A DNA stretch of 64,000 nucleotides. It comes from Leucoraja ocellata (lineage: Eukaryota). A program made the translations under genes and the position numbers. How positions within the stretch are numbered: the first letter of the stretch is position 1; every line of letters starts with the position of its first letter. Below are positions 1,020 through 62,869 of the stretch, piece by piece. The notes under the pieces were generated by a model. That model made no database searches, had not been told where the DNA came from, and saw only the letters and a program-made list of their open reading frames with translations. The stretch covers positions 1,240,001 through 1,304,000 of the forward strand of contig JAWMAR010000013.1 in assembly GCA_036785375.1 (NCBI GenBank). The letters run 5' to 3'.

Positions 1020-1270
1020 ATGGAGACGCAATGAACTGCAGATGCTGGAACTTTGCATAAACAACAAAGTGCCGGAGTAATGCAGTGGGTCAGGCAGTAT
1101 CCCAGCAGCACACGCACAAGCAACGTTTTGGATCGGGACCCTTCTGCGGACTGATCAAGAGATAATTAACATTATTGGATTAAGGTCACTGATATGGCAG
1201 TAGATCCGTGAAAGTGGACAGAAAAAACAAGGGGATAAGGGGTGGCAAAAGAAAGAAGGGAAAGGCAGGA
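1020..1270 (-). mobile_element. Penelope pLTR-like fragment with decayed hammerhead
   Basis: gaactgcagatgctgg...caacgttttggatcgggacccttctgcggactga shared with other copies. Confidence 0.6.
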
Positions 1271-8199: not shown

Positions 8200-8340
8200 G
8201 TGTTCAAGAAGGAACTGCAGGTGCTGGAAAATCGAAGGTAGACAAAAGTGCTGGAGAAACTTAGTGGGTGCGGCAGCATCTATGGAGCGAAGGAAATAGG
8301 CAACGTTTCGGGCCGAAAAGTTGCCTATTTCCTTTGCTCC
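8200..8340. mobile_element. Short Penelope-derived fold-back insertion with TSD
   Basis: Same family as 38264-38488; inverted arms 8282-8342; ccattaactca at 8189-8199 and 8339-8349. Confidence 0.8.
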
Positions 8341-8494
8341 ATTAACTCACAGTGTTTCCGTATTAAAAGCAAATCTCAAATCTACTATCTAATGATTTGT
8401 TTGTCACGTCCCACTTTGCTGATTCTCTTTCCTTGAAGATTCCTAATTTCTACCCTAATCGAGTCCCAGTTTCCCCTTTCAAATGTGTACTCAC

Positions 8495-12882: not shown

Positions 12883-13049
12883 CTGTTGATAGAGAACAAA
12901 ATATAACAATTATTATTTTTCTTCATAAGATATTTTTAAAGTTTCACTCAGATGTTAAACAACAATAAGCAAACCAGTGGCAGAACTCAGTGGGTCAGGC
13001 ACTTTCTGTGGAGGGAATTGGATAGATGTCACCCAAAATGTCATCTGCC

Positions 13050-13244
13050 AAAGACAAGACGCAAAATGCTGGAGCAACTCAGCAAGACAGGCAGCATCTC
13101 TGGAGAACAAAAACAAATGGGTGACGTTTCATAGGAAACACCACCCATTCCTTCTCTCCAGAGATGCTGTCTGCCCTGCTGAGTTACTCCAGCATCTTGC
13201 GTCTATCTTCAATGTAAACCAGCATTTCCAGTTCCTTTCTAGAC
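13050..13244. mobile_element. Penelope-derived fold-back insertion nested in an older copy (about 12960-13315)
   Basis: Inverted arms around about 13132; atgtcatct(g/a)cc at 13038-13049 and 13245-13256. Confidence 0.75.
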
Positions 13245-13604
13245 ATGTCATCTACCGAGTTTTTCTAGAAGTCTTCTTTTTGATCAAGATTCCAAAATCT
13301 GAAGTCTCGTGAATCTCTGATATGTAACAATGATAGGAAGAGCTAAATGGTGCTCCTAAAACAACAAACCCGCAAATTAAGATTTGGAGATTGGAAGTAT
13401 GATTTTTGAAAATTAGTTTCTAACTTGCTTACTTCAAATGACATCATCAGTTCCCACAGCAACTCTTCATAAAAATGGTTTTCTCCAATGTTGCACAGTA
13501 AAATACAACAGAGACATCTAGTGGTTCTAAAACATACCGACAGAAGTGTATTTTTAAAAATCTTCGAGCTCCACAACCCCACCATGGAAAACTTCAACAT
13601 GCAG

Positions 13605-14140
13605 GACTGGGCAATCGTTTCGCTGAACACCTTCCCTCAGTCCGCCTGAACCTACCTGATCTCCCGGTTTCTAAACACTTTAATTCTTCTTCCCAATCCT
13701 ACACAGACTTTTCAGTCCTAAGTCTCCTCCATTGTCAGAGTGAAGCTAAACGCAAATTGGAGGAACATCATCTCATATTTCGCCTGGGCAGCTTATAACC
13801 CAGTGGTATGAATATTGATTTCTCCAACTTCAGGTAGCCCCGGCATTCCCTCTCTCTCTATCCCTCCCCCACCCAAGTCGTACCAACTTCTCGTTTTTAC
13901 CTAACAAACAGCTAACAATGACTTGTTTCCTTTATCATCGTTAATTTTTTGCATATCTTTCAATCATTGTTTTTTATTTCTCTACATCATCGCCTAAATC
14001 CTCCGTTTCCCTTATCCTAACCAGACTGAAGAAAGGTCTTGATCCGTAAACATCACCCATTCCTTCTCTCCAGAGATGCTGCTTGTCCCGCTGAGTTACT
14101 CCAGCTATCTGTGTCTATCTTTGGTCATTCCTGCAGTCTG
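13605..14140 (+). mobile_element. Penelope-like element 3' fragment (GIY-YIG C-terminal part, pLTR, decayed hammerhead at about 14026-14055)
   Basis: Reverse-complement similarity to 61750-61985 (GNRFAEH...KLEEHHLIFRLG). Confidence 0.85.
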
Positions 14141-21435: not shown

Positions 21436-21544
21436 CTGAATAATAAGACAGAAAAAAGTGCCTTTGACCAAAGAGTGTTGGAAAGGAACCTGTAAATTAT
21501 CCTCCATTGCTGTATTTATAAACATTATACAAACTAATTAGGGT

Positions 21545-21572
21545 CTGAAGAAGAGCCTCGACCCGAAACGTC
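21545..21572 (+). ncRNA. Minimal hammerhead ribozyme motif (stem II mutated)
   Basis: CTGAAGA-A-GAGCCTCGACCC-GAAACGTC. Confidence 0.55.
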
Positions 21573-21678
21573 GCCTATTTCCTTCGCTCCACAGATGCTG
21601 CCTCACCCGCTGAGTTTCTCCAGCATTTTTGTCTACCTTTGATTTTCCAGCATCTGCAGTTCCTTCTTAAACATTTCT
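21547..21678 (+). mobile_element. Solo hammerhead-headed Penelope pLTR unit with long TSD
   Basis: ta(t/c)acaaactaatta(g/a)ggtct at 21526-21546 and 21679-21699. Confidence 0.75.
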
Positions 21679-25250: not shown

Positions 25251-25430
25251 CATTCTGTTCAGGAAAAATCTATTTGCTAATGAGATAGCAAAATTACTGG
25301 AAATACAAGAACAGACCTTGGTCTGCTTACTTTCAAAATCAAAAAAGCCAAGAAGCAATGGGCAAATGTGCTTTAGAGTGCAGAACATTGATTTGGTAAC
25401 AAAATGTACTATTTTATCCACAACTCTTAC

Positions 25431-25696
25431 TTATGAATCGCTGGGATTTCAGGATTGTTTCTGAATAGAGAGGAGGTTTTGATAGGATCCATCGTCTTAG
25501 GCTCTCCTTTGTTTCCTGGCTGTTCCATAACTTTTCTTTTCTTTGGAGCCACGCTGGACACCTGCTCTTTTCGACGTTCCTTCTCAACATTACTGTGTAT
25601 TTTTCTCACTGCAGAGGTTGATTGTTTTGCTGATTTGGCAGAAAAAGAGCCACTTCTGGAATTCTGGAATTGCCGTTTTCCTCGATTGGGCTGTGC
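25431..25696 (-). CDS. DDX31: DDX31 coding exon 2 (AQPNRGKRQF...IKTSSLFRNNPEIPAIH)
   Basis: atacag|...|gtaaga, 266 nt open, phase 0-2; KTSSLFxNNP conserved; an alternative in-frame AG lies 6 nt further in. Confidence 0.88.
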
Positions 25697-25904
25697 CTGT
25701 ATACAAAGTCAGTGGAAAGAAAATCAAGTCTTCGAAATAAAATAAACCAATATCAAATGAAAGGCTTTGCATTGTCACAAGATCAGCACCCCTTCCTAAA
25801 CTTCCACCAACTCAGATACCATTAATCTCTTTGTATTGATTTGTTGGAAGAATTTTACCAGATTACATTACATTGAACAAGGGATAGGCATAAACTGGTA
25901 AATG

Positions 25905-26290: not shown

Positions 26291-27772
26291 ACTCTGGTTA
26301 ATTTTCGTGCCTGCAGCAGCTCGGACCATTGGAACACATCAACAACATAATCTGGACAGGCCGACCCCTGCAACTCCAACCCAGTTCCGCCGAACAGTAC
26401 AACAGGACTTTATGGCCTAGTTAAGAACTCTACATTTTTAGCAACTTTAGACTTGAAGCATTCAAAATGACACGTAAATGTGGCAACTCGTGTAATGTCT
26501 CAGTGTAATCTGCTATTCCTACACTCTTCTACCTGTGTACGATGTATAGTAAGATTTTTACTGAACCACAGGCAAAAAAAAAGAATTTCACTGTACTTAA
26601 GTACACGTGACAATAAGTACCGTTGAACCATTGAATTCTTAGGGCTAATTGACATGCTTGTGATGTGCCCCATCTGTGGAGCATCCTTACATGGATGCAC
26701 TAGACTACAGCCTTTGGACTCTTATGACCCAATAATATCTTGTTGAGTTTGATTTCAGTAACCGTGTTATATTCCAATATTCCAATAACCAATGCTATAT
26801 TCAAAGGGATTGCTAACTTTGTTACTCGTCCCATCTCCCTTGGTCCCATACACCACCTCCCTGTCCCATCTGATTCCATCAGCTGAAGCCCTATGTCACC
26901 TCTACCAATTACACCCAGTCTCTGTTGATAACTCCACCCCTCTCTCCCTCACCTGACCATCCACATCCCTTCTCACCTAAATCCATGTATTGTGCACTCA
27001 CATTCTTGCACATCATTTCCACAGTGAGCATAATACATGCTCTATTGAGTAGCAAATTTGCTGCATTAATATGTTTGCTTGAATTCACTGATCAGCCAGT
27101 TTGTCTGCAATGTGTAATCCAAGCAAATTCTGGAACTTGGTCTTTTTTGCGCTGTCCCAGTGTCAGCGGGCCAAATCTGCCCCTACCTTTCAAATTCCCT
27201 GAATAGCTGATGTTCATTATCTACCATGATCACTGCTCTTGTTGGAAAAATTCATTCTCCATATTCCTCCCACCAGATCAATCTTATTACACCATCAAGT
27301 AACAACATTCGATATTCAATATCAACATAATATTGACACAAGGGACTGCAGAGGCTGGAATTCGGTGCAAAAAAACAGTGACAAGTCTTGATGCAAGGCC
27401 TTGACCAGTAATGCTGAATATCCCTTTGCCTCCACAGAAGCTGTCTGACATGCTGAATTGCTCCAAAGTTTGTTTTGGGTTAATATAGTGTTATTGAGTT
27501 TCCTGATGTTCTTCTGAACATACGGGACCATTTGGAGGCAAGAGACATAAACATTACATTCCTTAGTGAAGAGAACAACTCTCAATGAAACACCAGAAAC
27601 TGGTTCAACAATGTATCAAGGTTACACCTCATGATATACTTCATTCTTCAAAGATAACTTTACATGCAGCCACAGCGAAGGTCAGACCAGTGACTTACTT
27701 TCAGCAATGTACATTATCAAAGTGAACAAAACAATGAATGAGGATGCAAGCAGCAATTCACAGTGATCTCAC

Positions 27773-27874: not shown

Positions 27875-28560
27875 GTTTAGCGAAGCTGCAACGACTCGGG
27901 ACAAACTGCAGCAACCTCGGCTCCCCAAACAGCGGGCCGGTCCCACGTGAATCCACCAGCCACTTGTCCTCTTCTAATCACAGCAACTTTAATTCACAAA
28001 CAAACCACTTAAAAAAAAATAAACCAGCCCTAACAAAAGAATAAGCAAGGGAGACTTCTGGAAGTTTCCTGGGGTCTGCTTCCACGCGCACGTTGTTTCA
28101 TTACCGGGTGGATCCCGGTTGAAGTTTCCCGTTGCCCGGTGATATCAGGCGATCTGAGTGGTCGCTCCGCTTCATCAGCTCGGGGGCCTCCCGGCCATGC
28201 GGGCGCGGTGCTTGAGCGTCACTGGCGGGAGTAGAGCTGTGGAAGATGGCGTCTGTGTCCGCGGCCACCGGGAAGAGAAAGAACAGCGGCAACCTGGCCG
28301 TGCTGACGAGCAAGCGGGAGCCCAGCGTCAAGCTGCAGTACCCGGTGAGCGGCCCCGAGCCGCTCGGTTGGTCCGAGGACAATCGGCTGTCCATCACCAC
28401 CGGTAAAAACATCTACGTGCTGGAGCAGATCTGCGACATTCACAACAACGGGCTGGACATGGTGATCCAGCGAACCTCGGTGCCGGCGCCCAGCCAGAGC
28501 TGCTCGCTTAAGGTAACCCCCCCCCCCACGCCTTGCCCGTCTTCCCGCATCCCTTGCAGA
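27860..28560. promoter_or_regulatory. CpG island / bidirectional promoter shared by DDX31 and GTF3C4
   Basis: CpG-dense segment; divergent ATGs at 27874 and 28246; CACGTG 27944-27949, TGGCGGGA 28223-28230, AAGATGGCG 28243-28251. Confidence 0.85.
28246..28512 (+). CDS. GTF3C4: GTF3C4 (TFIIIC 90 kDa subunit) coding exon 1
   Basis: ATG...REPSVKLQYPVSGPEPLGWSED...RTSVPAP; donor AAG|gtaacc; 267 nt. Confidence 0.95.
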
Positions 28561-28701
28561 TCTAAAACTTCCCAAACTCGCTTGCTCCCCACCCGAAAAA
28601 CATTTGCGATGTTTTGAAATAAAATGCCTCCCTGAAGAAAAATCAGCGCGCATTTAGACCACGAAAATGTCCCGATTTGCAATTTAAGGTGTTGCGACTG
28701 A

Positions 28702-28858
28702 TAGAAACATAGAAAATAGGTGCAGGAGTAGGCCATTTGGCCATTCGAGCCAGCGAGTTCAATGTGATCATGCTGATCATCCAAAATCAGTACCCCGTTT
28801 CGACTTTCCCCCCCATATCCCTTGATTCCCTTAGCCCTAAGAGCTAAATCTAACTCTT
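28702..28858 (-). mobile_element. CR1-clade LINE 3' end
   Basis: tagaaacatagaaaataggtgcaggagtaggcc family. Confidence 0.85.
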
Positions 28859-28976
28859 GAATTATTTTGCAGCATGATCCCTCGTTACAGAAAGTAATAT
28901 TGAGCAGGAAATGTGATTTGCAGTAAAATTGTTTGGGGCACCATGGAGAGCTCCTTTGTTGCTCTTTGGTCTAGTG

Positions 28977-29419
28977 CAGTGGTTCCCAACGTGGGGCGTA
29001 CGCCCCACAGGGGGGCAATTTGATTTTTAAGGGGGGCAATTGAGCGCGACTGAGGAGGTCTGGGTCCAAATTTTCGATTTTTATTTTTTTGGATTTACCA
29101 TCAGGTAAACATATGTAGTTTATGTTTCAGATGTTATTTTGAGTAAATAATTTTTTTTGGGTAAAAAAGGTCTTTATTGTGTAGTTATTACATAATCACC
29201 GCGCCATCGCTCTTCTTGCACGTCGCACGAAGCGCGCGAGGTCATGGGAGAACCTTATTTATTGAATTGGATTTAGAAATGCGATTCAAAGAGCTTTTGC
29301 TACGTTACCCTTATAATATCTATTTCCTCCGTTTTCTCTCAAAGGAAAGCAAGGGGGGGGCATCAGGATTTTAGAGGTGATTAGGTGGGGCATGGCCAAA
29401 AAAAGGTTGGGAACCACTG
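28977..29419. mobile_element. Non-autonomous hAT (Charlie-like) DNA transposon, 443 bp
   Basis: Perfect 14-bp TIR CAGTGGTTCCCAAC/GTTGGGAACCACTG; perfect 8-bp TSD GTCTAGTG at 28969-28976 and 29420-29427. Confidence 0.93.
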
Positions 29420-30686
29420 GTCTAGTGTCATGCATGTTACATCTTACATGCACATGAAAAGTCGGATGTAGGCTTGGTTTAATGTTAGATTCCGAAGGCA
29501 GCACTTCTTGCAGTGTAGGGTTCTTTCAACTAAGTTAGTCCCATTTGCCCATGTTTGGCCCATATCCCTCTAAACCTTTCTTATTCATGTACCTGTCCAG
29601 ATGTCTTCTAAATGTTGTTAAAGAACTTTCCTCAACTACCTCTTCTGGCAGCACAGAAAAGTTGCCCCTTGGGTTCCTATTACATCTTGCCCCTCTCACC
29701 CTAAATATCAATTCTCTGGTTCTTGATTCCCCTGGCTCGCCGAGTTACCTTAGCATTTTGTGTCTTTTTTTGTAAACCAACATCTGCTGTTCCTTGTGTC
29801 TGATAAGTGTAGGTGTTGGGAGTACTTACCACTTTAGCCACAAACTTACAATTTGGGTATAATGTAGATGAAGTGTCAGAAAAGGTCCTGTTGCACTGCC
29901 TAAATCAAAGCAGTTTGTGTCATAGTATTTTATATCTATTTTACATATTTTTAATTTATCCTATTCTTGATAGGACAATTGCATCTAATTTCACATTTGT
30001 AGATGGTTATGCATTGAAAGTCCATGTTTACAGGGAATTGGAATAAAGCCGTCTAAACAAATTTCTTGAAACCCCCTTGATCTGTAAATCAGGAAATGTT
30101 TATCTCATCAATTCAAACTAGATATGAAATGCATCTCCGCACCCTTGTTCTTTAGATCTTCCTTCCACGGTATTTATTTTGTTACCTCCTTTGAAAAGCC
30201 TCGCAGTCCGATTTGCTGAGTTTTTCCATAATTTCTGACAGAAAATATTTATTGAGCCTGTAAAGTGGGAAAGTGTGTTCCATGACACACTGAAAATGAA
30301 AAGGAACATTGCCTAGAACAGAGGATGGTAAGACAACTAGTTGAACAGCTGGAGAGTTCAGCGTGTGTAGAAAGACTTTTCCAAAACTGACGCTGAGTTT
30401 TTTCAGCATTTTCAATTTTTGATTCAGATGTCCAATATCTGCAGTTTTTTTAATTTTTCATTTCTCCACATTTCTAAGGGTAGGGGGAATTCCCATTTTT
30501 TGTTAAGTGGAAAAAGTTGCAAATATGCACTTGAGACTTGAAATGAATCTCATTCAGGCCAATTATTATTTTTTAATCAATATTTGATGGCAGCAATATG
30601 CCCATAAATTGGTTAAAATTAAATTTGATAATATGAATTTACTTTGGACTATGTACTGATATAAAAAATGTTTTTTTTTGTTTCAG

Positions 30687-32501
30687 GTTGGCTCTCAAGC
30701 AGAAGTAAGTGAATGCAAGAAGAAGTTCTTGAATAAAAGAGATCCAACACTAAGTCACTCACTAATGATGGACAGGATCTTTAATCCTGAAGGTGGTGCA
30801 TTGTCACCCTTACGAGGATTTAAATTCACCAGTTGGTCCCCCTTGGGTTGTGATATAAATGGAAGGTGCTTATTGGCATCTTTAACACTGGATAATAGAC
30901 TGTCCATCCAGGTGAATGTAAATAGGCTGCAGTGGACACCAGCTTTAGATATTACAGAAGTGTATGGTGAAATGTTATACGAGAACAAATATGGACATTT
31001 GGATGCAGACTTGGATGAGGAGCTGAAGAATTTCTCGGAATTCCAAAGGAGGCACTATATGCAAACTCCTGTCAGAATGGAATGGTCCAGTATTTGCAAT
31101 ACCCAACGCGTAAAAGCCAACAATGAGTGTGAAGATGTGGGTACAGTTCTGTTGGCCGTCCTACTTGAAAATGGTGATGTTGTCATATGGCAGTTTTTGA
31201 TCCCATTTCATGGCAAAGATTCAATCATTGCATGCAGTACGATTGAATCAGGCATTAATGACCCAAGTGTTCTGTCTTGGTGGGAATATGAGCACGGGAG
31301 TCGCAAAATGAGTGGCTTGATTGTTGGTAGCTCCAAAGGACCTGTTAAGATTCTGCCAGTCAACTTGAAATCAGTGAAAGGATACTTCACTCTCAGGCAG
31401 CCAGTGGTTCTTTGGCAAGAGATGGATCAGTTACCCGTGCATAATATTAAATGCATATCTCTCTCCCACCCATATCAGAAATGTAGCTGCAGTTTGGTTG
31501 TTGCAGCCAGAGGAACATATGTTTTCTGGTGTCTGTTGTTAATATCCAAAGCAGGACTCAATGTTCACAATTCTCATGTAACTGGCCTCCACACACTTCC
31601 CATTGTATCTCTGACTGCGAACAAGCAAACCGGGAGTTTCTACACCTGCTCTGTCGATGGAACCATCCAAAAGTTGACTCCAGTCTTCACAGATGTAGCA
31701 GTGAAGTTTGACCATGTTTTAATCAAGTTACCAGAGTCAATTGGCTCCGTGAGACTTCATGGAATCTGTCTGAGCCCCAATGATGCTTACATGGCACTTG
31801 TGACAGCGGAAGGTATAAATAATGGCCTCCATCCAGCTAGCCGCACGTACCAGGTGCAGTTTATTACGTTAAAAACTCCAGAAGAAGCAGCATCTAAGCT
31901 TTTGGAATCGTCCATCCACAACCTATTCAAACAGGTGGACTTGCTTGATCTTGTACGCTGGCGAATATTGACAGAGAAGTGTATTCCCCCAGACCTTGAT
32001 GAAGCTTTAGACCATAAGCTCCAGACAAATCCATTAAGCTACCTATGGCGGCTAAAACTTTTCTTTTTAAAGATCTTATTTCAGACATTACAGAAGAATC
32101 CCGCTGAAACACTTTGGAGGCCAAATCATCATGAATCAAAGGTGCTGCTGTGTGATAATTCTGTGTTGTTAAATGAAAAAAGTGGACAGCCTGACGAAGC
32201 AGAGACAAGTGCAAAGGAAGGTCAATCAAGTCGAGTGCTTGGGTGTCAAGCGGAAGACTCGCCTGTGGACCCAAAAGTAGACAAATCTGAAGAACAAATT
32301 CGGGAGAGGGTTTCAAGGAAATTGAATGAGATTCAGAGTAGGATTGAAGATGTGGAGCTCCACTTGACTCGTGAACACATGAAAAGAGTCCTAGGCGAAG
32401 TGTACCTCCACACCTGGATAACTGAGAACACCAGTATCCCAACCAGGGGCATTTGTGACTTTTTAACATCTGATACTGGCTACGATGATAGGACAGCTAA
32501 G
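30687..32501 (+). CDS. GTF3C4: GTF3C4 coding exon 2 (large, 1815 nt)
   Basis: tttcag|GTT...AAG|gtagga; 605 open codons incl. SWSPLGCD, HTWITENTSIPTRG. Confidence 0.97.
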
Positions 32502-33034
32502 GTAGGACTCGCCTGAACAATTTTTTTTCCCCTAATGCTCTCCTCCTCTCCACTCTTAGTCTAACTGCCTGTTACATGCTATGTGATGTTAAATATATAA
32601 AGTTAATTGGACTTCAGATGTATTTTGTCTTGTTTAATGGAAAAATAAAATAAGCTAATTTTTATTCCTAAGGTGTTGCCAAGGTTGCTGGACAGGACTA
32701 CAGAATATCTACAAATAGCTATCATATCATTGGTCCTTATCGAGTGTGACATTTGGGTTTTAAATATCCACCATTATGTTTTGGATTCACAAGCATTGTA
32801 CATCAAGTTATTTGGCAGTCTCTTAAACTTTGTTGAAATTTGACACAATTTTGGACATTGCAAATGCAGACTGGGTTTCTCTGACAATAGGACTCTTCTG
32901 GTTATGGCACCAAGTTAGCCAAAGATTGTAAATTCTAATCTTGCATCACGCCAGATTGAATGCAATGAAAAGTGGACTCGCTGCCATCAAAAGTGCATGT
33001 TGCAAGGCTCAACTGCAGAGACACAAACGGCAAG

Positions 33035-33393
33035 ATTGTTAAGGGTTTGGGCGCTAGTGGCAGGAAACATGTACCTGATGTTGGGGGAGTCCAGAACCAT
33101 GGGCCACAGTTTAAGAATAAGGAGTAAGCCATTCAGAACGGATACGAGGAAACACATTTTCTCACAGAGAGTTGTGAGTCTGTGGAATTCTCTGCCTCAG
33201 AGGGCGGTGGAGGCAGCTTCTCTGGATGCTTTCAAGAGAGAGCTAGATAGGGCTCTTAACAATTGCGGAGTCAGGGGATATGGGGAGAAGGCAGGAACGG
33301 GGTACTGATTGGGGATGATCAGCCACGATCACATTGAATGGCGGTGCTGGTTCGAAGGGCCGAATGGCCTACTCCTGCACCTATTGTCTATTG
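33035..33393 (+). mobile_element. Young CR1-clade LINE 3' end
   Basis: GHSLRIR...FSQRVVSLWNSLPQ...GYGEKAGTGY*, ctattgtctattg tail. Confidence 0.9.
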
Positions 33394-33829: not shown

Positions 33830-34190
33830 ATAAATCATCTCGCTGAATACCTCCGCTGTCCGCCTTAACCTACCTGATCCCCCGGTTGCTCAGCAGTTTA
33901 ACTCCCCCTCCCATTCCCAATCTGACCTTTCTGTCCTGGGTCTCCTCCATTGTCAGAGTGAGGCCCAGCACAAATTGGAGGAACAGCACCTCATATTTCG
34001 CTTGGGTAGCTTACACCCCAGCGGTATGAACATTGACTTGTCTAACTTCAATAGCCCTTGCTTACTATATTCTATCTCTGTCCCGACCACTCCCCTGACA
34101 TTAGTCTGAAGAAGGGTCTCGACCCGAAATGTAACCCATTCCTTCTCTCCAGAGATGCTGCCTGTCCCGCTGAGTTACTCCAGCATTTTG
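33830..34190 (+). mobile_element. Penelope-like 3' fragment (GIY-YIG C-terminus, pLTR, hammerhead) nested in CR1
   Basis: QQFNSPSHSQSDLSVLGLLHCQSEAQHKLEEQHLIFRLGSL. Confidence 0.85.
34106..34133 (+). ncRNA. Minimal hammerhead ribozyme motif at Penelope 3' end
   Basis: CTGAAGA-A-GGGT(CTCG)ACCC-GAAATGTA, directly downstream of a GIY-YIG fragment. Confidence 0.6.
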
Positions 34191-36608
34191 ATAAACTTCT
34201 TCTGCATCCTTTCCAAAGCCTTCCACATCCTTCCTGTAATAATCAAACATAACTGTACCCAATATTCCAAGTGGAGCCTAACCAAATTCCTATAAACCTG
34301 CAACATGATTTTCTGATCCTTTACTCATTGCAGCAAACAATGAAGGCAGGCATAGCATATGTCTTTACCAGGCTCTCTACTTCTGCTGCACTTTCAGGGA
34401 GCAATGGACTTGAACCCAAGATCCCTCTGTACCATTAACTATTTATTTTTCCCTTGCAATCGATCTCTCAAAGTGCAGCACCTTATACTTGCTCGTATTA
34501 AACTCCATCTGCTATTTCTGTAACCTATTTACACCCTGCTGTATACTTCGACTCATTGCCTTCCTCACCAGTCACATACCTCCATAATAACACACTTCCA
34601 CCATATCTGCCTTCTATGAGTAAACCAGCTCTAAATCCAAATTACTATGGATATCATGTATCTTAACCTTTTGAATCTGCTTGCCAAGTGATTTTATAAA
34701 ATGCTGTTCAAAAATACACGAAGGCAAAATGTATTACCCTAATATCGTGGTTCACCTTTGTCATCTCTGCAAAACCCTCAATCAAGTTCATAAGACCTGA
34801 TGTTATGGACAAAGCCATGCAAACTGTCCCTAATTAGCCTGTTCTCTTCCAAATGCATGTGAATCGTAGCACAACAAATCCTTTCAAGTGTCTTCCCTAT
34901 CCACTGACGGGAGACTGAATGGCCTATAATTTTCTGGATTATTTATATTTCCTTTCTTAAACAAATGAACAATATTAGCAACTCTCCAGTCCTCCGGGAC
35001 CTCGCCTGTTACTAAAAAAAGATGCAAAGATCTTGGTCAAGGCTCCCGCAATCTCTCTTGCCTCCCACAATAAACTGAGGTAGATCCCATCAGGCCCAGG
35101 GCATTTATCCACCTCAATGCCGTTCAAGAGGCCCAGTATTTCTTCCTCCTTAGTCCCAAACTATCCTAGCATTTTCGTAATGCCCACAATAATTTCACTG
35201 TCCTAAAAGACTTCTCCTTGGTGAATACAGATGCAAACTGCTTGTTTAGATCCTCGCCTATATCCTCTTGACTTGTGGCCCAAGTTTCTCCTCTTTATCC
35301 TTGAGTGGTCCTACCTTCCCCCTGATTTCCCCTTTTTTTTTTTTTTTGCATAGGTACAAAGCATCAGGATTTTCTTTAATCCCGACACTCCAATATCATT
35401 TTGTGGCCCTTTTTGTCTCTTCTAATTGCTCAATGATTTTTTTTCTCCCTGCTGTATCTATGTTCCTCAAAGGTCCAGTCTGATTTCATCTTTACAAACA
35501 TTACACAGGCTTCCTTTTTCTTTTTTTGTTAAATTTACAACCTCTGGTCATCCAAGTTCCCTTACCTTGTCATACTTATCCCTCCTTACCGCGACATGCC
35601 AGTCCTGGTATTTGTAACACAAGGTCTGTAGCCCTGCAGGTGACTCATTTTCAAGTGCACGCCCATTTTATATTGGAGAAAAGAGCAGTAATCCCTGACG
35701 TTCTGTTACCGAGTTAACGTCAATAAAAATTTGCCCTTGAAATAGTTTCTGGAAAAAATAGGTGGTCAGTGACACCATACTGTTGTTTAGAACTTGCTGT
35801 GCATACTCATGTGCTAAGTCATCTTCGAGTGACTGCCTAAGAAGCAGAAGGCAGCACACATTTCTAGCATACTTCCTATATTGCTCTAAGAATCCTCAAT
35901 TGGTTATATAGCAACTTTAGATTATTTAAATGATATTGAATACATTATGTAGCTTTTCTTTTCTCCTTAAAATTGACATTGGAAAATTAAATATAGCTTC
36001 ATCAGCATTGCTAAAAGATGGCCATGTCATTTTTTTCCTGACACCTTTGCTTTCTAAGCTGCCCCTCAATGACTGAAACATATTTGATCAAACTAGCCAA
36101 TTATAAGTTAGACATAAACATAAGGAACTGCAGATGCTGGTTTACCAAAAAAGACCCCAAAGTGCTTGAGTAAAGCAGTACATCAGGCTTCCATCTTTGG
36201 AAAACATGGATAGCCATCAGGTCACGACACTTCATCAAACTGATTGGGGTGGGGGGGAAGCCGGAAAAGAGTTGGCGGCAGGACACCGCTTGGCATGCGA
36301 TATGTAGATACAAGTTGCAGATGCTGGTTTACTAAAAAAGACAAAGTGCTGAACTAATAAGGTGGAGGTGGTACTAAAAATATTGTCAAAAAATTGCTAT
36401 AGGACAAACAGTGTTTACTCTACTTGAACCATATCAGTGGAAATATAAATGCATGAACTGTTTCATTATATCTACAAGTACATTTCTACATTATGTAAAG
36501 GATATCTTTGAAACTCTAGCAATATTAGCTAGTGGAAGGTATTTGTAACTTAAACCCTTTATCCTAATATGAATAAGTTCAGTCAGTTGCTATACCTTGC
36601 AAGCAACT

Positions 36609-38090: not shown

Positions 38091-38364
38091 AAAAAGGTAT
38101 TAAAAATTCAGCCTCTTTTGTGGACTGAAATAATCACTGTTTTTCCATTTTTATTCAATCTCTTGTGCTAAGATTGCCTTGAAGCCCTTCACTGCTGTCT
38201 CTAAGCAGCCAGAATACCACATAATATTCAAGGAGCAATCCAGCCAGAATACTGTAATTTGATGTTTAAGAGGGAACTGCAGATGCTGGAGAATCGAAGG
38301 TTACACAGAAAAGCTGGAGAAACTCAGCGGGTGCAGCAGCATCTATGGAGCGAAGGAAATAGGC

Positions 38365-38392
38365 AACGTTTCGGGCCGAAACCCTTCTTCAG
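38365..38392 (-). ncRNA. Minimal hammerhead ribozyme motif (mirror copy)
   Basis: Exact reverse complement of 38394-38421. Confidence 0.7.
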
Positions 38393-38393
38393 T

Positions 38394-38421
38394 CTGAAGA
38401 AGGGTTTCGGCCCGAAACGTT
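38394..38421 (+). ncRNA. Minimal hammerhead ribozyme motif (Penelope-type)
   Basis: CTGAAGA-A-GGGT(TTCG)GCCC-GAAACGTT: intact core, UUCG-capped stem II, palindromic ACGT stem III; stem I weak. Confidence 0.7.
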
Positions 38422-38542
38422 GCCTATTTCCTTCGCTCCATAGATGCTGCTGCACCCGCTGAGTTTCTCCAGCTTTTCTGTGTAACCTACTGTAATTTGA
38501 TTACTGCCTCATCCAACTTAGGATGCAGTGTGTATTGTCTTT

Positions 38543-38787
38543 AATAGTAAGATTAAACGAGAACTTACCAGTTTGAAGTTTGATCTTGATTTTATGAGGA
38601 GTTACGATGAGCGATTACGTGAAGAAGGGCCGTCCGTCTGTGTGCGCGTCAATCTTCAAAGCAGCGGTGTTAAATCACATAAAAAGAAGACCTGAGAATA
38701 GTAAGATTGTGAAGAAACTAGAACTTCCATATGACCTTGATAGTATGCGGGTGGGAGCGGTGGGCACGTAATCGCTCATCGTAACGG
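38543..38787. mobile_element. Probable DIRS-like retroelement terminal remnant
   Basis: 21-bp perfect inverted repeat 38601-38621/38765-38785, preceded by aagattaaacgagaacttacc; CpG-rich. Confidence 0.45.
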
Positions 38788-39540: not shown

Positions 39541-39671
39541 GTTTTGATTTCACATAATTTGAAGAAATTGACCAAACAGACGTTTCCTGAGCACTGCTCT
39601 CTCTGTAAAGAGATTCTGCCGTTTACAGATCGCCGCAAGGCAGTCTGCCCCAATGGACACATTTGGCACAG
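39541..39671 (+). CDS. GTF3C4: GTF3C4 coding exon 3 (VLISHNLKK...EHCSLCKEILPFTDRRKAVCPNGHIW)
   Basis: atatag|...|gtaatc, 131 nt, phase 0-2; C-terminal zinc-finger-like Cys/His pattern. Confidence 0.95.
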
Positions 39672-40089
39672 GTAATCACTGCCTGCAGCCAGGCTGTAGA
39701 TGCATGTTGTGCATCCTGTAAGGGGAGGGGCGGGGAAACTGGCCATGAACTGGTCCTGTGTGCAAGTCTAAGAGTCAAGAGTATTTCTTGTCATATGTAC
39801 CAGATATTATCTGGAACAATGAAATTCTTGCAGACACTAAGAAATTTCATTGTTTCGGTACATACGTCTTTTGTGCAGTTAAATTCATGCCAATAAAAGT
39901 CCTGCAATCATGTAACCTTCTTTAAAGATATACAAGGCAACAATGTGATTTTGCAGCTTTTGGAAAAGTTAAATTGCATCCAAACATGTCTTTCATGCGG
40001 CAATACTGGCTGCAACTGGTGTAAATTATACAGGCAGGTGGAACAGTCAGTTGTTGCATCAGTACAGTCCAACCTATTTCTCTGTGCAG

Positions 40090-40178
40090 ATGTATATTGA
40101 CGTACCACGCGTGTCAGAGTCTGACGTATCGCAGATGTTTGCTACATGACAGCATTGCTCGACAGCAGTTGCCTTCAG
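40090..40178 (+). CDS. GTF3C4: GTF3C4 coding exon 4 (CILTYHACQSLTYRRCLLHDSIARQQLPS)
   Basis: gtgcag|...|gtgagc, 89 nt, phase 2-1. Confidence 0.95.
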
Positions 40179-41204
40179 GTGAGCTACTGATGAAGGAAAA
40201 AATCAAACCAACTCATTTTTTTGCTTTCCGAAATTTCATAAATGCAAAGAAGTGAGCTTGAATATTGTATTGTCAGGGGGCATGTGGATGGAGCTTGTTG
40301 GAGCTCACTGGCGGTTGCAATAGTGGACATTTTTATCACCCGATTGTTGTGTGGCCACCTTTCTGTATGAAATGTAAAGTGGCATCGATATTTAGATCAT
40401 TTCAATTTATTGAACTTGAAGGAAAATAATTGCTCATTCAAATGGTGGTTCCAAATAAACTCTTACAAGTAAATGAAATGAATAAATATGGTAGAATAGC
40501 TGCCAATAGAATCTCGGTCTGAGGAAGGGTCCCGCCCCAAAACATCATCTATCCATGTTATTCAGAGATGTTGCCTGATCTGCAGAGTTACTCCAGCAGT
40601 CTTTATTTGCCAATAGAATTGTGTGCAGCCTGCTCCACTTCATGCAGAATTGCAGCACTCATTTGTGTTGGTCAGTCAAAAATAGATTTGTGTGTTCCAG
40701 ACCGCACTCAATGCTCGTGTCTGCAAATGTCATTGCTAGAATTCCTGTTCCTTTTCAGCTGGCCCATAGGAAGCACTTTATCTCCACATGACAAACTTAA
40801 TTCAAGCAACATATTAAAGGCCAATGATTGTGCTTCACTGATACAATTATTCATCACATTTTTAAAAAAGCTCCCCACAGAATGGTGGTCCAAATTAGTG
40901 TATGTGCATAAAGCAAAAATTTGGGTAGATTTTTTTTTTTTTTTTTCTCGAGTCCCAAGCTGTCAAGTGAATTTTTTTCTTCATGTGAAATTCCATGATC
41001 AGTTTCATGCACGCAGAAGCATTTAAGAAAGTTTGTTTTGTATTGCTGTGATATTTTAGAGACAGAAAGTCATACAGCATGGAATCAGGTTCTTCGGCCC
41101 AACATTCCCTTGTCGACCAAGATGCCCCATCAGTGTTTGCCCCACTTGCTGTGTTTGGCCCATATCTCTCTAAAGCTTTCCTATCCGTGTACCTGTCAAT
41201 ATAT

Positions 41205-41930: not shown

Positions 41931-42039
41931 GACGGACTGGATAGAAGATGGAAGATTTTTTTAAACTTCAAACCACTTGACATTTTATTTGATCAGCAAT
42001 GTTATCTTTGGAAATTAAAGAGTTTTTTTCTCATTCCAG

Positions 42040-42104
42040 ATCCTGACTGGATAAAGCGCCTGCTTCAGAATCCTTGTACGTACTGTGACTCTCCTCTCTT
42101 CTGA
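42040..42104 (+). CDS. GTF3C4: GTF3C4 last coding exon (DPDWIKRLLQNPCTYCDSPLF*)
   Basis: ttccag|AT CCT...TTC TGA; total CDS 2367 nt = 788 aa. Confidence 0.95.
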
Positions 42105-42792: not shown

Positions 42793-42823
<31 letters not shown>

Positions 42824-43619: not shown

Positions 43620-45190
43620 AAAAAGCGGCACTTGCACACACTTCAGCCTCCACCATTCCAGAGACACCAATCCTAGTTTGTCCAAACTTGCTTTATATCT
43701 AATATTCTCTAATCCATGCAGCAGCCTGTTAAATCTCTTCTGTACCTTCTTCAAGGCTTTCACACAATACTCCAAATGGGGTCTAATTAAAGTCCTATAA
43801 CAGTTCATCCTGATTCTTGAACTCAATGCCCCACCACACAAAGCATACTATTTTATCTTTACCACTATCTACTTATGTTGCCACTTTCAGAGAGCTATGG
43901 ACTTAGACCCTATGATCCCTCTCTTCACCAATGCTGTTAAGGGTCTTGCCATTATTTGTATACTTTGTCCACAATTCCAGCAATCTTGATGTCATTGGCA
44001 ATCATATTCACCAACCCATCTACATTTAATTTCAAGTCAATTATATATATATATATTTATCAATTTCCTATGCATCTAAAGTTTCTGGATCAACCTTACT
44101 TGGGGGACTTTATCAAATGCCTTACTAAAATCCATGTAGACAACATCCAATCACCTTTGACACCTAAAAGTACTCAATCAAGTTGATGAGACATGACCTA
44201 CAGTGTAAAAGGCATGCTGGCTGTCTGTAATTAACATATTCTCTTCCAAATAGGAGTAAATCCTATCCCAAAGAAACCTCTCCAATAGCTTCCCTGCCAC
44301 TGATGTGAGGCTCACTGACCTAGAATTCCCCAGACTATCTCTGCTTTTCTTTTTAAACAAAGGAAGAACATTGTCTACTCTCCAGTCCTCCAGAACCTCA
44401 CCTGTGGCTAGAGAAGATGCACAGATCTTTGCCAAGGCTCCTGCAGTTTTCTCTTTTACCTCTAAGAATAACCTGGGATAAATGCTCTTCAAGAAGCCTC
44501 CTCCTTGATTTCAAACTGCCCCTGTATATTCATATTCTCCACACTGATCTCCTTGTCCTTGATGAATACAGATGTAAAGTACTCATTTAGTTTCTCGCCT
44601 ATATCCTGACTCCTAGCACAAATTCCCTCCATTATCCTTGAGCGGTCCTACCTTCATCCTGGTTACTCTGTTTCAAATGTATGTGTAAAAAGCCTTGGGA
44701 TTTCCTTTGATTCATGGCCCCCTTTGACCCTTCTAATCACCTGTTTGTTTTCATTCCTACTTCCTTTATATTCCTCAAAGGTCTTGTCTAATTTCACATT
44801 AGAGTCATATAGCATGGGAACAAGCCCTTTGGCCCAACTTGTGCACACTGACCAAAATGTCCCACCTGCCTATACCCAATCTAAGTTGTGTGGATCCCAT
44901 GCATCTAAATCTTCTGGAACAGCCAACCATGAAGAGTAAAGTACAAAGTGCTGAAGGAACTCAGTGGGTCAGGCAGCATCTGTGGTGGGAATTATGACAT
45001 TTCGGGTCAGGACCATTATTCAGACCGTTTTAATGCTTTAATAAAGTCCATGTGGCAACATCCACTGCTCTACTTACCAATCATCTTTGTCACCTCAAAA
45101 ATCTTAATTAAATATATGAGATGGGACATCTTTTATACACAGCCACAGTGACTATTCCTAAGAAATCCACGATTTTCCAAATGTGAGTAA
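43620..45190 (-). mobile_element. Decayed CR1-like LINE with nested CR1 tail and pLTR piece (decayed hammerhead 44996-45023)
   Basis: YRTLIRPHLEYCV, EDWRVDNVLPLFKK, SVSLTSVAGKLLE. Confidence 0.85.
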
Positions 45191-55337: not shown

Positions 55338-58300
55338 ATTAAAAAATGATTATAAAGACACGCAACTTGCAGTATTCAAAGTCTGAAGAAGGGTCCTATC
55401 CCAAAACATCAGCTATCCATTTGCATCAGATGCTGTCTGAGCCGCTGACTTACTCACGCATCTTTCTTTGCATCTGCAATTCTTTTTTACATATTACCCA
55501 AAATATATAGAGTGCAATGAAGTAAGTACAACGCTACATTCTTGTTTGTACAATTACAATTTCTTTATCTAATTTACAGTACCTGCCGAAGACACGAGGT
55601 CCCCAAATTAAATTAAGTTAATTAAAATGTATTTTACAGGGGAAAAAATGCAAACCATAAAAGATGTATATCATTCTTTAATCTGGTCAGTCAATGGTGC
55701 ACAAAAAACCCTGTAAAAATATGTCATGACTTGTATATCATATCTGCTATTTTGGAAGAGGCTAAGCATCACACTCGGCAGTATTTTTCTGCTCCTTTGG
55801 TTGGTGTATCGAGCGATGCTCAGGTACCAGCTGTGCTGCTCTTGTCTCAGAGATGCAGTTGTGCAGCACAGTCCCGCAGGCTGCTTCTTGTTTAACTCAT
55901 AATTGATTGTGACAAATCAACCCCAGTTGTGAATAAAATCTCTCCAGAGGCATAAGAGACACTGTATTTGGCTGCCATTAACTGCTAAATTAGTGAGTAC
56001 TTCAAGCAAATTACAACATCAGATATAAAACTCATGAATCCAATTAAAAATAAAACTTAAAAAAAAACCCACAGGCAACCTGTTGAATCTAGCTGAAAAC
56101 CCCAACATATATTTTAGTGAATCACTGCTCAAAATAGATTATGTATTTAGCCATTCATTATAAATTAATTTAGAGAAAAAACATCAAGAGCACCCCAATA
56201 TGTTGAAACTTCCCTGGAAGCTGGCAATCTCACATTCAACTGTGTAAATGTTCTAAAAGGTCTTGAATATTTTATGAATATTTGTCATAAAACAGAAATA
56301 ATAACTACTGAGCAAAGCTATTAGTATTAATATTTATGCTGCTGGTGCTGAAATATTCATGGAACAGAGAAAGGGTTGTAAGATGAGAATTAATTTACAT
56401 TGTGCTCTGTTTACCAACCAGCCTGATGTTTAGGCATTTGGCAAGCGCTGATATGAATCTGTCACTCAATTTCAGTGTCAGAGAGGAAGGCGGCTGTCAG
56501 TTTGAAGATTAGGTTTCTGACAACTGAAATCCTGAAAGGTTTCCTCCTCCCTTTATTTTATATTTTATTTGTCCACTTTTTATTTTGCCTTGGGCAATGT
56601 ATGCCACCCGTTCACCCGATCACCCTTCCATCTGCTTAAATTAACGAATTAATGAGAGATACATTCTACACCGGCCCAAAATGTTTATTGGTGATTAAAT
56701 TATAATGGGAGCTGCATAATTCATGAACCAATTAGTGGAAGTGTTAGCTGATTTGATGGGATGAGGAGGTACAAACTACATTAACTAATAGAGAGCTTGG
56801 GGCTGCTGCTGCCTACCACTCGGATTACGTGCCTAATTGCTTTACTTTATCTGCCTGTCACAGATAGCCATGCATATTTCATCATTCTCAAAGACTTCAA
56901 TTGTTTACTTTCTTGTTGATCCTGTAACATGTAGAAGCTAAGCCAAGCTTTTGTGTAGTTAAAACCATCCGGAATTGAATCAGTTTTTGGCTGTGTGCGT
57001 AGAAGGCTGAAAGAGTAGCCCACTTATCTCTTTAGATCTACTTTGGAGCTCATTTTTCTTTAATTTCTTCTTCCATCGTGCTTACTGAGCTCCTCTTTCA
57101 GCTCGGAATGCATGGCAGTCTCCTCCAATCTTAGTTGCTTTTGTATGGTCCACAAGTGGAGATCGTAAGCAGAAAATAAAACCTGTCCTCTTTGTATCCA
57201 GTGACAACATCAGTCATTTCCAGGCCTGATATCCCAGTGGAAAGCACTGGAACCCCAGGAAATGTGAGTTAGCTCTCAACGGAGAAAATGAAGGAGAGCC
57301 TTCAACTGCACAATTCCATTGCACTCGCAAGCTACCCGCACAGTCTCTTTGACTGAGATTGCCCAATTAGAACTCAAATGTGGACAGTTTTACGTTGTAG
57401 ACCTGCTGCTTCTGAGAACTGATTGCATGTCAGAATGAATTTCAGTAAGGACCCTTAATGCTTATCAGAGGGAGAAGATACTTTCATCCCATCTGTCTGG
57501 GCTGACCCACAACTCCTTCCTCCACTGACATGTGGCACATTTGCTGTGGGGGGAAATTATTTAATGCCATTTTTCTTCTGTGATGAGATATTCCCCTTAG
57601 GATTCTGGCTGAGAGCTGACAAGTTCTACCACGCACGTGGATGAACAATTCATGCATCAGCCACAGAAATTATTATGAATCTCTGACAACAGCCATATAA
57701 AATGAATATCACAACTGCTCTGATACTGGGCTGTTCCATCACTTCAAAATTTACATAACCAATTTTAGCTGGAAGGTGTCACCAGACTTGGCTTTCACAT
57801 TGTCAAGGTGTACGCCATGCAGTCTTTTATTATCCTCTACAATAGCTCAATGTTGTTATCAAAATTATTCTGTACAACACATCTTTACCGTTTAACCTGT
57901 AGTATTTATTGAAATACTCTTCTTTTGGCATGTCCATTCACCAAAAGTAAAACTGATCTTTGTTCGGGTATTTAAATGTTGTATCTATCTCTTTGCCCCT
58001 GTTATATAGTATTTTCACTGTTGGATCAATCTTCAGTTATTTTAACACTGAAAATAATAGTTAGCAAAGATGAAGATGGAGAGAGATAGAGAAACAGCAA
58101 ATAGGTAAGTGAGTGAGAAAGGGCAGTAGGTACGGAGAAAGCGATAGAAGTGAAGAGGTTTGCCTCCATTCAAGATACTTTTAAAGAAACAATTCCACTT
58201 AAGTCAATTTTATGGAGGCAAAACAACCTTAATCACTGAACCCCAGAGATTTGGGCTATAAAGTAAATGTATATATTTAAAAATCTTTCAAGTGTGGAAT

Positions 58301-58699: not shown

Positions 58700-58825
58700 T
58701 AATGTGTAGGAATGAACTGCAGATGCTGGTTTAAACCAAAGATGGACACAAAAACCTGGAGTAACTCAGCAGCATCTCTGGAGAGAAGGAATGGGCAACA
58801 TTTCAGGTCAAGACCCTTCTTCTGA
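58700..58825 (-). mobile_element. Penelope pLTR fragment with decayed hammerhead
   Basis: gaactgcagatgctgg...caacatttcaggtcaagacccttcttctga. Confidence 0.7.
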
Positions 58826-59764
58826 TGGCACATGCACATCCTTAATATTATCAGGAAAACGTGCATCTGTAATCTATTAAAAACATTTACATGAATATTT
58901 CAGGAAACGTGGGAACCCCCTGCACTCTTGTGCAGACACATTCTTATCAATTGCTATCAATTCCATTTTGTATCCAAACCTGGGTTCACAATCAACTGCA
59001 AAGTAACAAAGCTTCCCACAGAGAATGCAGTCTCTGAGGCAGGTTTTTCCTCTTCAGTTGCTGTCGGTCACCAGTTCCCCATTATTTCTGGTTCCCAGCA
59101 ACACTGATAGCACTGAACAGCCAATCACATAATTGAATTCTCCACAGACAGCAAATCAGAAAATAAAAAGCACTACATTTAAAGTCATATTTAAAATATT
59201 TGACACTGCATGAAAGAAAATTACATCATACCTGGTATTGGGAAGCTAAAAAAACAAGCTTAATATATAATTTTAATATCATATTATTTTGAAGTGTTTA
59301 CCTGAAGGAAATACAATCTATCCTAAAAATTAATTCATAAGGCCAGAGAGTTTGATAAGCAGTAATAATGGCTCAGTATATTATTAAAAAGTAATCTAAA
59401 CCGCATGCAACAAAGCATTGGAATTTTGGAATATTTTACAGCAGGAATAGTTAATAAATACTTTAAATTATGAACTAAGCAAATTACTTAAGATTAACGT
59501 GGCGAGGGCTGCAAAACAGCACTATTTTTAAGCCGCAGGCAGTGACTGATAGCAACTTCTGGATATCACTGCCACACACATTCTACAAACTGCAGTCCAT
59601 TTTATAGTAATGAGATAGTATAGCTGCCTGTTTTGCCATCATTATGTGAATGCTAGTTGGTGCTGTGAAAGTTAATGTTATGGTGAAGTTGTTGAAATAA
59701 GCATTGTCTGTTAATCCATATATCCTGTACTGCAGCATAGGAGTGCACTCAGCTTCATAGTTCC

Positions 59765-61599: not shown

Positions 61600-62545
61600 G
61601 GAAAGGAATGGGTGACATTTCGGGTCAAGACCCTTCCTCAGACTGATATCAGGGGAGTGGACGGTACAGAAATAAAATGTAGTCGGAGACAATAAGACTG
61701 GTGGGAAAACTGGGAAGGGGGGGGGGGATGGAGAGAGGGAAAGCAAGGGCTACTTGAAGTTATAGTGTTCAATGTTCATACCGCTGTGGTGTAAGCTACC
61801 CAACCGAAATGCGAGGTGCTGTTCCTCCAATTTGCGCTGGGCCTGACAATGGAGGAGGCCCAGAACAGAAAGGTCAGATTGTGAATGGGAGGGGGAGTTA
61901 AAGTGCTGAGCAATCGGGAGGTCAGGTAGGTTTAGGCGGACTGAGCGGAGGTGTTCAGTGAAACGATTGCCAAGCCTGCGCTTGGTCTCACCAAAACACA
62001 GGAGTTGACACCTGGAACAGCGTAGATGAGGTTGGAGGAGGTGCAAGTGAACCTCTGCCTCGGAAAAGATGGTCGGGGTCCTTGGACGGAGTCAAGGGGG
62101 GGAAGGTAAAAGGACAGGTGTTGCATGGGGAAAGTAGCTAGGGAGGGGGTGGTTTGGGTGGGAAGGGACGAGTTGACCAGGGAGTTGTGGAGGGAACGGT
62201 CTCTGTGGAAAACAGAAAGGGGTGGAGATGGGAAGATGTGGCCAATAGTAGGATCCCGTTGGAAGTGGCAAAAATGTCGGAGGATTTTATGCGACGGCTA
62301 ATTGGGTGGAAGGTGAGGCCAAGGAGGGCTCTGTCCTTGTTATGAATGGGGGGAGGGGAAGCAAGAGCAGAGCTGCGGGATATCGAGGAGACCCTAGTGA
62401 GAGCCTCATCTATAATGGAAGAGGGGAACCCCCGTTCCCTAAAGAATGAAGATATCTCCGATGACCTGTTATGGAAAACCTCATCCTGGGCGCAGATGCG
62501 GAGGAATTGGGAGTAGGGGATATAGTCTTTACAGGAAGCAGGATG
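61600..62545 (-). mobile_element. Penelope-like retroelement fragment with GIY-YIG endonuclease and hammerhead
   Basis: ORF 61750-62046 CSRCQLLCFGETKRRLGNRFTEH...HFNS...KLEEQHLAFRLGSL, frameshifted upstream. Confidence 0.9.
61614..61641 (-). ncRNA. Minimal hammerhead ribozyme motif at Penelope 3' end
   Basis: Minus strand CTGAGGA-A-GGGT(CTTG)ACCC-GAAATGTC. Confidence 0.6.
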
Positions 62546-62869
62546 GGAAGGAATGACAGCGTGATTCAGGTAGACAGTTCACCAATGTCTTCACAAGGGC
62601 CGTTTAGGATGCATCATAATTGCTGGCCCTGCCAGGTATGCTCAGATGCTGAAAACGATGAAATAAAATGTCCTCAAATAAGATAAAAGAAACAAAGTGT
62701 TGCTTAAATTTCCCCCGCTACCACTTCCAGTGATTCATGGTGAGGAATATCTTGCAGGGCCCATTGCACATTTCTGGCAGAATCTGCCTGATTTGCCTTC
62801 TCTGTAAATTAATGAAAAATAAATTCTGCAAAGATAAAATTGAAGACCTCCCCTTTTCCATCTAGAAAC

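Follow-up and report, generated by a model that had tools for sequence, protein, structure and literature searches.

Genomic context of the window

The sequence analyzed here is a stretch of 64,000 nucleotides from the skate Leucoraja ocellata (contig JAWMAR010000013.1; the window, with positions counted from its first letter). Its plus strand carries exons of GTF3C4 at 28246-28515, 30681-32504, 39541-39672, 40088-40195, and 42039-42101, and the region of the large exon (30660-32513) matches Narcine bancroftii at 92%, Hemitrygon akajei at 91%, Cetorhinus at 89%, and Callorhinchus at 82%, identities that point to a batoid host. The focal copy of the repeat described below lies in sense in the second intron between the mapped GTF3C4 exons. 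On the minus strand we found an adenylate kinase 8 exon (47478-47756, E value of 1.4e-25) and exon-like frames with the look of a DEAD-box helicase (11674-12078 and 25427-25708), which, from vertebrate synteny, we take to be candidate DDX31, although our searches did not confirm it.

Several unrelated features accompany these genes. Fragments of a LINE, presumably CR1/L2-like, lie at 21963-23053, 28440-28970, 32919-33308, 44178-44510, 49795-50545, and 52585-52866, with an RVT_1 domain at 22712-23053. Pairs of terminal inverted repeats at 38601-38785 (21 bp, perfect), 28971-29425 (20 bp), and 18762-19224 (26 to 27 bp) look like MITEs or DNA transposon remnants. A second short repeat family is found at 61504-61588, 5287-5374, 11666-11748, and 26575-26616, one copy of which interrupts a pLTR at 61600. 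A run of 25 G at 42794-42818 is possibly a sequencing or assembly artefact.

A dispersed family of hammerhead motifs

The original prediction placed a 28-nt hammerhead motif at 13 positions of the window. Scanning the 64 kb with this pattern gave exact matches at 4 of the 13 (34106+, 38394+, 38365-, and 61614-) and matches with up to three mismatches at 11, while 100 shuffles gave none. The same four sites were returned by a structural descriptor of the minimal hammerhead (core, optional extra base, paired helix II, GAAA, NN, and UH), for which 200 shuffles had a mean of 0.07 matches and a maximum of 1; a loose pattern of core plus GAAA was far less telling (13 matches against 5.65 expected). 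A profile built from 11 window copies had 32 matches up to an E value of 5, 24 of them below 0.001, and its best E value on five shuffled windows was 0.34. BLAST with nine window units identified 26 clusters totalling 2,605 bases. Judged by pattern and profile matches, all 13 positions are indeed members of one repeat family found on both strands, to which we can add very old copies near 6827, 24682, and 27388. The list of best copies holds for 34106, 38394, 38365, and 61614 but not for 21545, which forms 2 of the 4 helix II pairs, and the two exact matches at 38365 and 38394 are the mirror arms of one insertion instead of separate copies.

The hammerhead motif makes up the first 28 bases of a repeat unit of about 90 to 135 bp, the pLTR of a Penelope-like element (PLE). 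The copies and associated fragments are the following (TSD, target-site duplication).

34106..34133, plus strand: focal minimal-hammerhead motif, with CUGANGA, extra A, 4-bp helix II with tetraloop, GAAA, and loopless stem III
34100..34105, plus strand: helix I 5' strand of the focal copy, predicted to pair with 34134-34139 (2 bp, 2x2 mismatch, 2 bp)
34134..34189, plus strand: remaining pLTR 3' of the predicted cut in the focal copy, stopping without a tail
33833..34099, plus strand: C-terminal part of a PLE endonuclease and short 3' UTR, joined to the focal copy
61600..62578, minus strand: longest PLE remnant, with frameshifted RT thumb, linker, and GIY-YIG endonuclease (62578-61750) and a 3' UTR
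61641-61614, minus strand: motif of the longest PLE remnant, which is interrupted near 61600 by another repeat
13601..14140, plus strand: endonuclease fragment, longer 3' UTR, and pLTR; motif 14026 with a 1-nt insertion in GAAA
22994..23409, plus strand: endonuclease trace, 3' UTR, and pLTR; motif 23290 with G5 and G12 changed and the sole 6-bp helix I
21542..21677, plus strand: solo pLTR and tail; TSD of 18 to 22 bp
38264..38487, both strands: head-to-head pLTR insertion; motifs 38392(-) and 38394(+), centre at 38393, one base before C3
51860..52074, both strands: head-to-head pLTR insertion, centre just before the core; motifs 51952(-) and, disrupted, about 51957(+); 12-bp TSD
8201..8342, both strands: head-to-head pLTR insertion, centre in helix II (8312); CUGANGA lost; 11-bp TSD
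13048..13249, both strands: head-to-head pLTR pair beginning at about G12; CUGANGA lost
40511..40607, plus strand: solo decayed pLTR; motif 40519 with G12 changed; 12-bp flanking repeat
1024..1155, minus strand: decayed pLTR and tail; motif 1149
36104..36350, minus strand: partial tandem of a truncated pLTR end followed by a decayed pLTR; motif 36238 with GAAA deleted
44937..45026, minus strand: decayed pLTR; motif 45023 with G8 changed
55379..55465, plus strand: decayed pLTR; motif 55383 with G12 changed
58701..58831, minus strand: decayed pLTR and tail; motif 58824 with U4 changed
27388..27466, plus strand: very old relative with U at N7 and other helix I letters; similar copies near 24682+ and 6827+

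Rfam searches of the whole window and of the focal 141 bases gave no hammerhead match, even at an E value of 10; its matches to mir-722 and AEV_CRE were under the gathering score, were located on palindromes, and were discarded. Exact-pattern scans of bacterial and archaeal genomes had no match, and neither did a scan of a plasmid collection for the family. A word-index protein search with a 45-residue reading of the motif region returned nothing, while HMMER with the same reading had 10 matches, of which 5, at 70 to 83% identity, are spurious readings of the same repeat.

Hammerhead architecture

In the description by Cervera and De la Pena (2014, PMC4209133), the minimal hammerheads of metazoan PLEs combine the CUGANGAH box with GAAA and NUH, a helix II whose closing pair is G10.1-C11.1, a palindromic 15.2-16.2 that lacks a loop, and a helix I that is short. 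Compared feature by feature with the accessible part of that description, the prediction that the motif is the minimal type I hammerhead of PLE ends is well supported. The core (CUGANGA, GAAA, U16.1, and NUH) is complete, with 11 of 11 bases, in 7 of 18 arms, and its letter is the majority one at every position across subfamilies A to C. All 14 arms of these subfamilies have the extra A between positions 9 and 10.1, the G10.1-C11.1 pair is G-C in 11 of 18 arms, and helix II, expected to have at least 3 pairs, has 4 of 4 pairs in 8 of 18. The free core position N7 separates the copies by age (U in all 3 old copies, A or G in 13 of 14 young ones). Variation in the helix II loop was seen as predicted, although much of the CTCG/CTTG alternation is CpG decay, and the proposed U-A/U-G swap is a one-sided difference between subfamilies. 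Likewise, the palindromic ACGU stem III is a feature of the family (CG at 15.2-16.2 in 5 of 18 arms, most others being products of CpG decay), but the focal copy has a CpG-decayed AUGU, and its cut triplet is GUA.

Helix I is the weakest region of the structure. In 34106 and 61641 it would begin next to the core with U-A or U.G and then G-C, these 2 bp giving way to a 2x2 mismatch and two further pairs; 14026 and 38392 lack the innermost pair. By our by-eye reading of the published table, as far as accessible, a helix I of 2 bp occurs in 6 of 56 motifs, always with G-C pairs, and the others have 3 to 6 bp (PMC4209133). A helix of 6 bp is present only in 23290, which carries two core changes; we do not take it as the true state of the family, as it is probably accidental: 1149 and 36238, which belong to its subfamily, have C at position 2.4.

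The 40-base copies fold no better than shuffles, and the energy model assigns the inner helix I of the majority motif a probability of 0.04. Bases 3' of the cut are competing partners for the helix II 5' strand. The modelled hammerhead dimer has -2.1 kcal/mol versus -21.1 kcal/mol for the best dimer, a gap of about 19 kcal/mol that is uncalibrated against any known minimal hammerhead; energy models handle hammerhead junctions poorly. The covariation proposed as a check on the family alignment did not rise above shuffles among the 18 arms (score, 192/500; cells paired, 28/500).

Linkage to Penelope-like elements

Endonuclease fragments lie on the same strand 56, 109, 189, and 233 nt upstream of motifs 34106, 61641, 14026, and 23290, respectively. 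The predicted position of the motif 3' of an endonuclease thus stands at four sites, but the GIY-YIG region itself is present only in the fragment linked to 61641, and the one linked to 23290 is a 14-residue trace (tblastn E value of 0.02 to 0.1). An endonuclease fragment has 74% identity over 85% of its length to a protein of Leucoraja erinacea, the species of the nearest named retroelement proteins, and the RT thumb, linker, and GIY-YIG of shark and sea urchin proteins can be aligned, in that order, along 62548-61846. The longer relatives carry RT, a Cys linker, and GIY-YIG, while the window copy is frameshifted and its own linker decayed; the window holds PLE fragments without a full-length element, and Pfam did not recognize these fragments. 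Another PLE piece, at 21763-21866 on the minus strand, has an internal deletion that fuses the endonuclease to the pLTR 3' of the motif, with the hammerhead removed.

According to the accessible part of PMC8557442, PLEs in which a Cys linker joins RT to GIY-YIG belong to the Neptune and Nematis clades, and only Neptune and Poseidon PLEs were found in vertebrates according to the available text of a preprint (bioRxiv 10.64898/2026.07.22.740005). As the linker type and the vertebrate distribution coincide in Neptune, this is the likely clade, the RT core being absent from the window. We consider it highly probable that the motif is a minimal type I hammerhead in the pLTR of Neptune-type PLEs of batoid fish. 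The unit follows the PLE endonuclease in sense and also occurs alone or head-to-head between target-site duplications, so it was spread by retrotransposition, and the copies then decayed. A MITE or SINE with a coincidental hammerhead look could account for the several insertions that are palindromes with target-site duplications, and for the Rfam result, yet it is hardly credible and already largely refuted by the ORF linkage: the repeat is attached in sense to PLE endonuclease fragments at four sites, the palindromes have unequal arms, only one of which bears a tail, the core stands at the start of the unit, and the fit to the PLE consensus is exact.

Insertion structure and boundaries

Direct repeats of 11 to 22 bp adjoin the unit ends at 5 of 21 sites searched: 21545 (18 to 22 bp), the palindromes at 38393 (14), 51958 (12), and 8312 (11), and 40519 (12). 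Random places scored 11 to 12 in 3 of 60 control trials, so the repeats of 11 to 12 bp are weaker evidence. The palindromes have 35 to 40 extra bases on one arm that are missing from the other. Inverted pLTRs with palindromic junctions, solo pLTRs, duplications of 8 to 10 bp, and an optional tail of 30 to 40 bp are described for PLEs in the available sections of PMC3846280 and PMC8557442, and the window contains partial tandems, inverted pLTRs, and the optional tail.

None of the 26 BLAST clusters starts at the predicted cut (+28), with a possible exception in the decayed copy near 13025, whose start is ambiguous. Nine arms without an ORF fragment begin 1 to 8 bases before C3. Two independent palindromes invert at or beside the base before C3, and the others in helix II or near G12; a possible fifth head-to-head pair, very decayed, lies at 13026-13045 with its centre near 13034. 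Upstream of the ORF-linked copies the sequence is 70 to 80% pyrimidine and ends in YAG|T, and the same bases fit YYANWYY, the initiator consensus. In the focal copy it is the 5' strand of helix I (34100..34105) that closes the tract at YAG|T and matches YYANWYY. The solo copies 21545, 40519, and 45023 have G instead of A at position 2.3, which would add a third helix I pair and may be a subfamily variant, target sequence, or a spliced form; in 21545 this G falls inside the target-site duplication.

The insertion at 38264..38487 has 95-bp arms that are 100% complementary, a tail on one arm only, and a 14-bp target-site duplication. The absence of differences between its arms suggests a young insertion or gene conversion. 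This perfect inverted repeat lies in a GTF3C4 intron and would give long double-stranded RNA in the pre-mRNA.

Decay of the copies

The original prediction had named as its own refutation test a core no more conserved than the flanking pLTR. At the non-CpG positions of the core, 9 of 137 cells depart from the majority letter; the figures are 11 of 98 for helix II and 52 of 463 for the downstream pLTR. The core thus tends to change less than the downstream pLTR, the expected direction, but not significantly (P = 0.15), with 14 arms giving little power. Subfamily consensuses agree at 10 of 11 core columns and 38 of 51 downstream columns (P = 0.43). For these counts 38394 was omitted as the mirror of 38392 and 61641 was counted up to its interruption; the rate test also excluded the three very old copies. 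Better conservation of the core was therefore not borne out. The CpG at 11.1-G12 is changed in 7 of 14 arms and that of stem III (15.2-16.2) in 8 of 13, with CpG-type changes, a pattern that we take to indicate methylated DNA free of selection.

Only 2 of 18 arms (38392 and 38394) combine an intact core with full pairing of helix II and Watson-Crick pairing in stem III, and their joint transcript forms a perfect 95-bp hairpin of -195 kcal/mol; each of the other 16 lacks one or more features of the core, helix II, or stem III. As the core is not significantly better conserved than the flanking pLTR, we read the copies as decaying and not maintained, so that those of the window are probably neutrally decaying insertions or passengers and not working ribozymes.

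This damage, together with the hairpin that encloses the two intact arms and the CpG decay at G12, makes it very improbable that the scattered copies serve the host as functional ribozymes, or act as non-LTR retrozymes, by cutting introns or producing circular RNAs. Such a role would suit the high density, the sense position of 34106, 38394, and 40519 inside GTF3C4 introns, and the tandem retrozymes of one chondrichthyan sampled in the available text of bioRxiv 10.64898/2026.07.22.740005. However, the window has no tandem array of the unit: the nearest core-bearing neighbours on the same strand are 1.7 to 35 kb apart (minimum, 1,745 nt), so no tandem dimer is present in it.

A more serious alternative, though one we still regard as the less probable, is that the PLE-derived hammerhead is already catalytically dead in the skate subfamilies, being kept as a promoter, splice site, or RT-binding part while helix I degenerated. 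It would explain why copies with native upstream sequence have a weak 2-bp helix I, why the bases after the cut pair better with the helix II 5' strand than with the helix I strand, and why core conservation is not above that of the rest of the pLTR. Elsewhere, in the accessible parts of the sources, the anole PLE inserts in vitro without cleavage (PMC11167929), 8 of 9 Xenopus dimers did not cleave (bioRxiv 10.64898/2026.07.22.740005), and Naiad PLEs thrive without hammerheads (PMC8557442). Against it, subfamilies A to C have the majority letter at all core positions; 2 of the 3 very old copies form the two innermost helix I pairs from other letters, a weak argument from heavily decayed sequences; and a 2-bp helix I is known in Drosophila PLE motifs (PMC4209133, accessible part). 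By analogy with its relatives, we lean toward an intact skate-type motif that would really cleave, bearing in mind that minimal PLE hammerheads are described as not cutting as monomers and cutting weakly as dimers (PMC4209133; review, PMC6765202; available portions).

Abundance

Four descriptor matches per 64 kb would extrapolate to 1.3e5 in a genome of 2.13 Gb, the size given for the little skate in the accessible text of PMC10115646 (Poisson range, 3.6e4 to 3.4e5; from one window in which two of the four matches are one insertion), and 15 core-bearing arms to 5e5. The vertebrate counts of 2014 were about 4,000 in the coelacanth and about 9,000 in Xenopus, mostly as single motifs with some opposite-strand pairs (PMC4209133, available portion), so a skate-sized genome perhaps exceeds them, a lead from one window with descriptors that differ between studies. 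The density behind the predicted very large ribozyme family is thus real in the window, but the class was already described in 2014 and the copies are decaying, not a maintained family.

Proposed mechanism

A tandem transcript of an intact element would contain two copies, which would pair through the ACGU palindrome and cut after GUC or GUU. To judge from tested relatives, cleavage would be slow and probably take place only with the help of the element's protein. In the available parts of the anole PLE study, the ribozyme cuts only with its protein and cutting is not needed for insertion; uncleaved RNA is the main template, and reverse transcription has two internal start sites between which the tail lies (PMC11167929). 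The junctions in the window suggest that reverse transcription would likewise start in or just before the 3' tail. Since no cluster starts at the cut and arms begin 1 to 8 bases before C3, the template is probably uncleaved RNA. It would be copied through the core, and copying would often stop or fold back a few bases before it, leaving solo and palindromic units. The fold-back may involve short native near-palindromes located at the motif's 5' edge, and this edge may be set by a 3' splice site or a transcription start, either of which would constrain the 5' strand of helix I.

A further scenario, which we offer as speculation and judge rather unlikely as a whole, is that batoids hold about 1e5 intact-looking and 5e5 recognizable minimal hammerheads, more than tenfold the vertebrate counts of 2014, and that the most amplified subfamilies are conditional ribozymes. 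The 5' edge of the pLTR (initiator or 3' splice site) would overlap the helix I 5' strand, splicing or protein binding would be required to complete the helix and activate cleavage, and uncleaved RNA starting just before the core would be copied into solo and fold-back insertions.

Insertion starts cluster immediately ahead of the core, which gives a testable clue to the start of the element RNA and to the formation of head-to-head pLTRs. For the host, ribozyme cutting is probably of less consequence than the perfect intronic palindromes and the double-stranded RNA that they would form. The data show neither a new ribozyme class nor a functional host ribozyme family; they suggest a very rich set of natural variants for studying what PLE hammerheads do.

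Comparison with known systems

Our literature searches, some of which were swamped by unrelated papers and are weak, found no chondrichthyan PLE hammerhead or motif letters other than the one chondrichthyan in bioRxiv 10.64898/2026.07.22.740005, for which the available text reports tandem retrozymes and PLEs without sequences; in the accessible text of a Greenland shark preprint the sole mention of a ribozyme concerns rRNA. The non-LTR retrozymes of the former preprint share with the skate family pLTR-derived type I hammerhead units in vertebrates, including that chondrichthyan, but they are defined in its available text as tandem arrays with at least two complete motifs, of which the skate window has none.

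The Penelope element of Drosophila virilis, as described in the available portions of PMC2377424 and PMC4209133, also has a 2-bp helix I. Its intron ends at helix I, where splicing was shown, while in the skate the pyrimidine tract ending in YAG has the same place and splicing is only suggested; a longer helix II and an insertion in stem III set the Drosophila motif apart.

Closer to the skate family is the anole Poseidon element PAc (PMC11167929, accessible part), with which it shares a pLTR hammerhead, insertions that keep the whole core, and two classes of 3' ends separated by the tail. PAc belongs to the Poseidon clade, has an ORF that begins inside the motif, and was shown to be cleaved, whereas the young skate copies have no start codon in the core and their cleavage is a prediction. 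With Neptune-clade PLEs (PMC8557442, accessible part) the family has in common the order of RT thumb, linker, and endonuclease, inverted 5'-truncated copies, and an end tail of 30 to 40 bp, the skate window containing fragments only.

The closest likeness is to the PLE minimal hammerheads of PMC4209133. Going by the accessible part of that paper, the core, the extra nucleotide, G10.1-C11.1, GAAA, the palindromic 15.2-16.2, and NUH are common to both, as are the place in the 3' pLTR after RT-EN, the dispersed singles, the opposite-strand pairs, and the several subfamilies. The differences are a skate helix I of 2 bp with U-A or U.G followed by a mismatch, a far higher extrapolated density, and the fact that their 56 tabulated motifs, as accessible, include no chondrichthyan. 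The motif class has been known since 2014, including its mass occurrence as single dispersed copies in vertebrates, and the skate family represents a known kind of system that is new to this group of animals, extending the described class to the dispersed repeats of cartilaginous fish.
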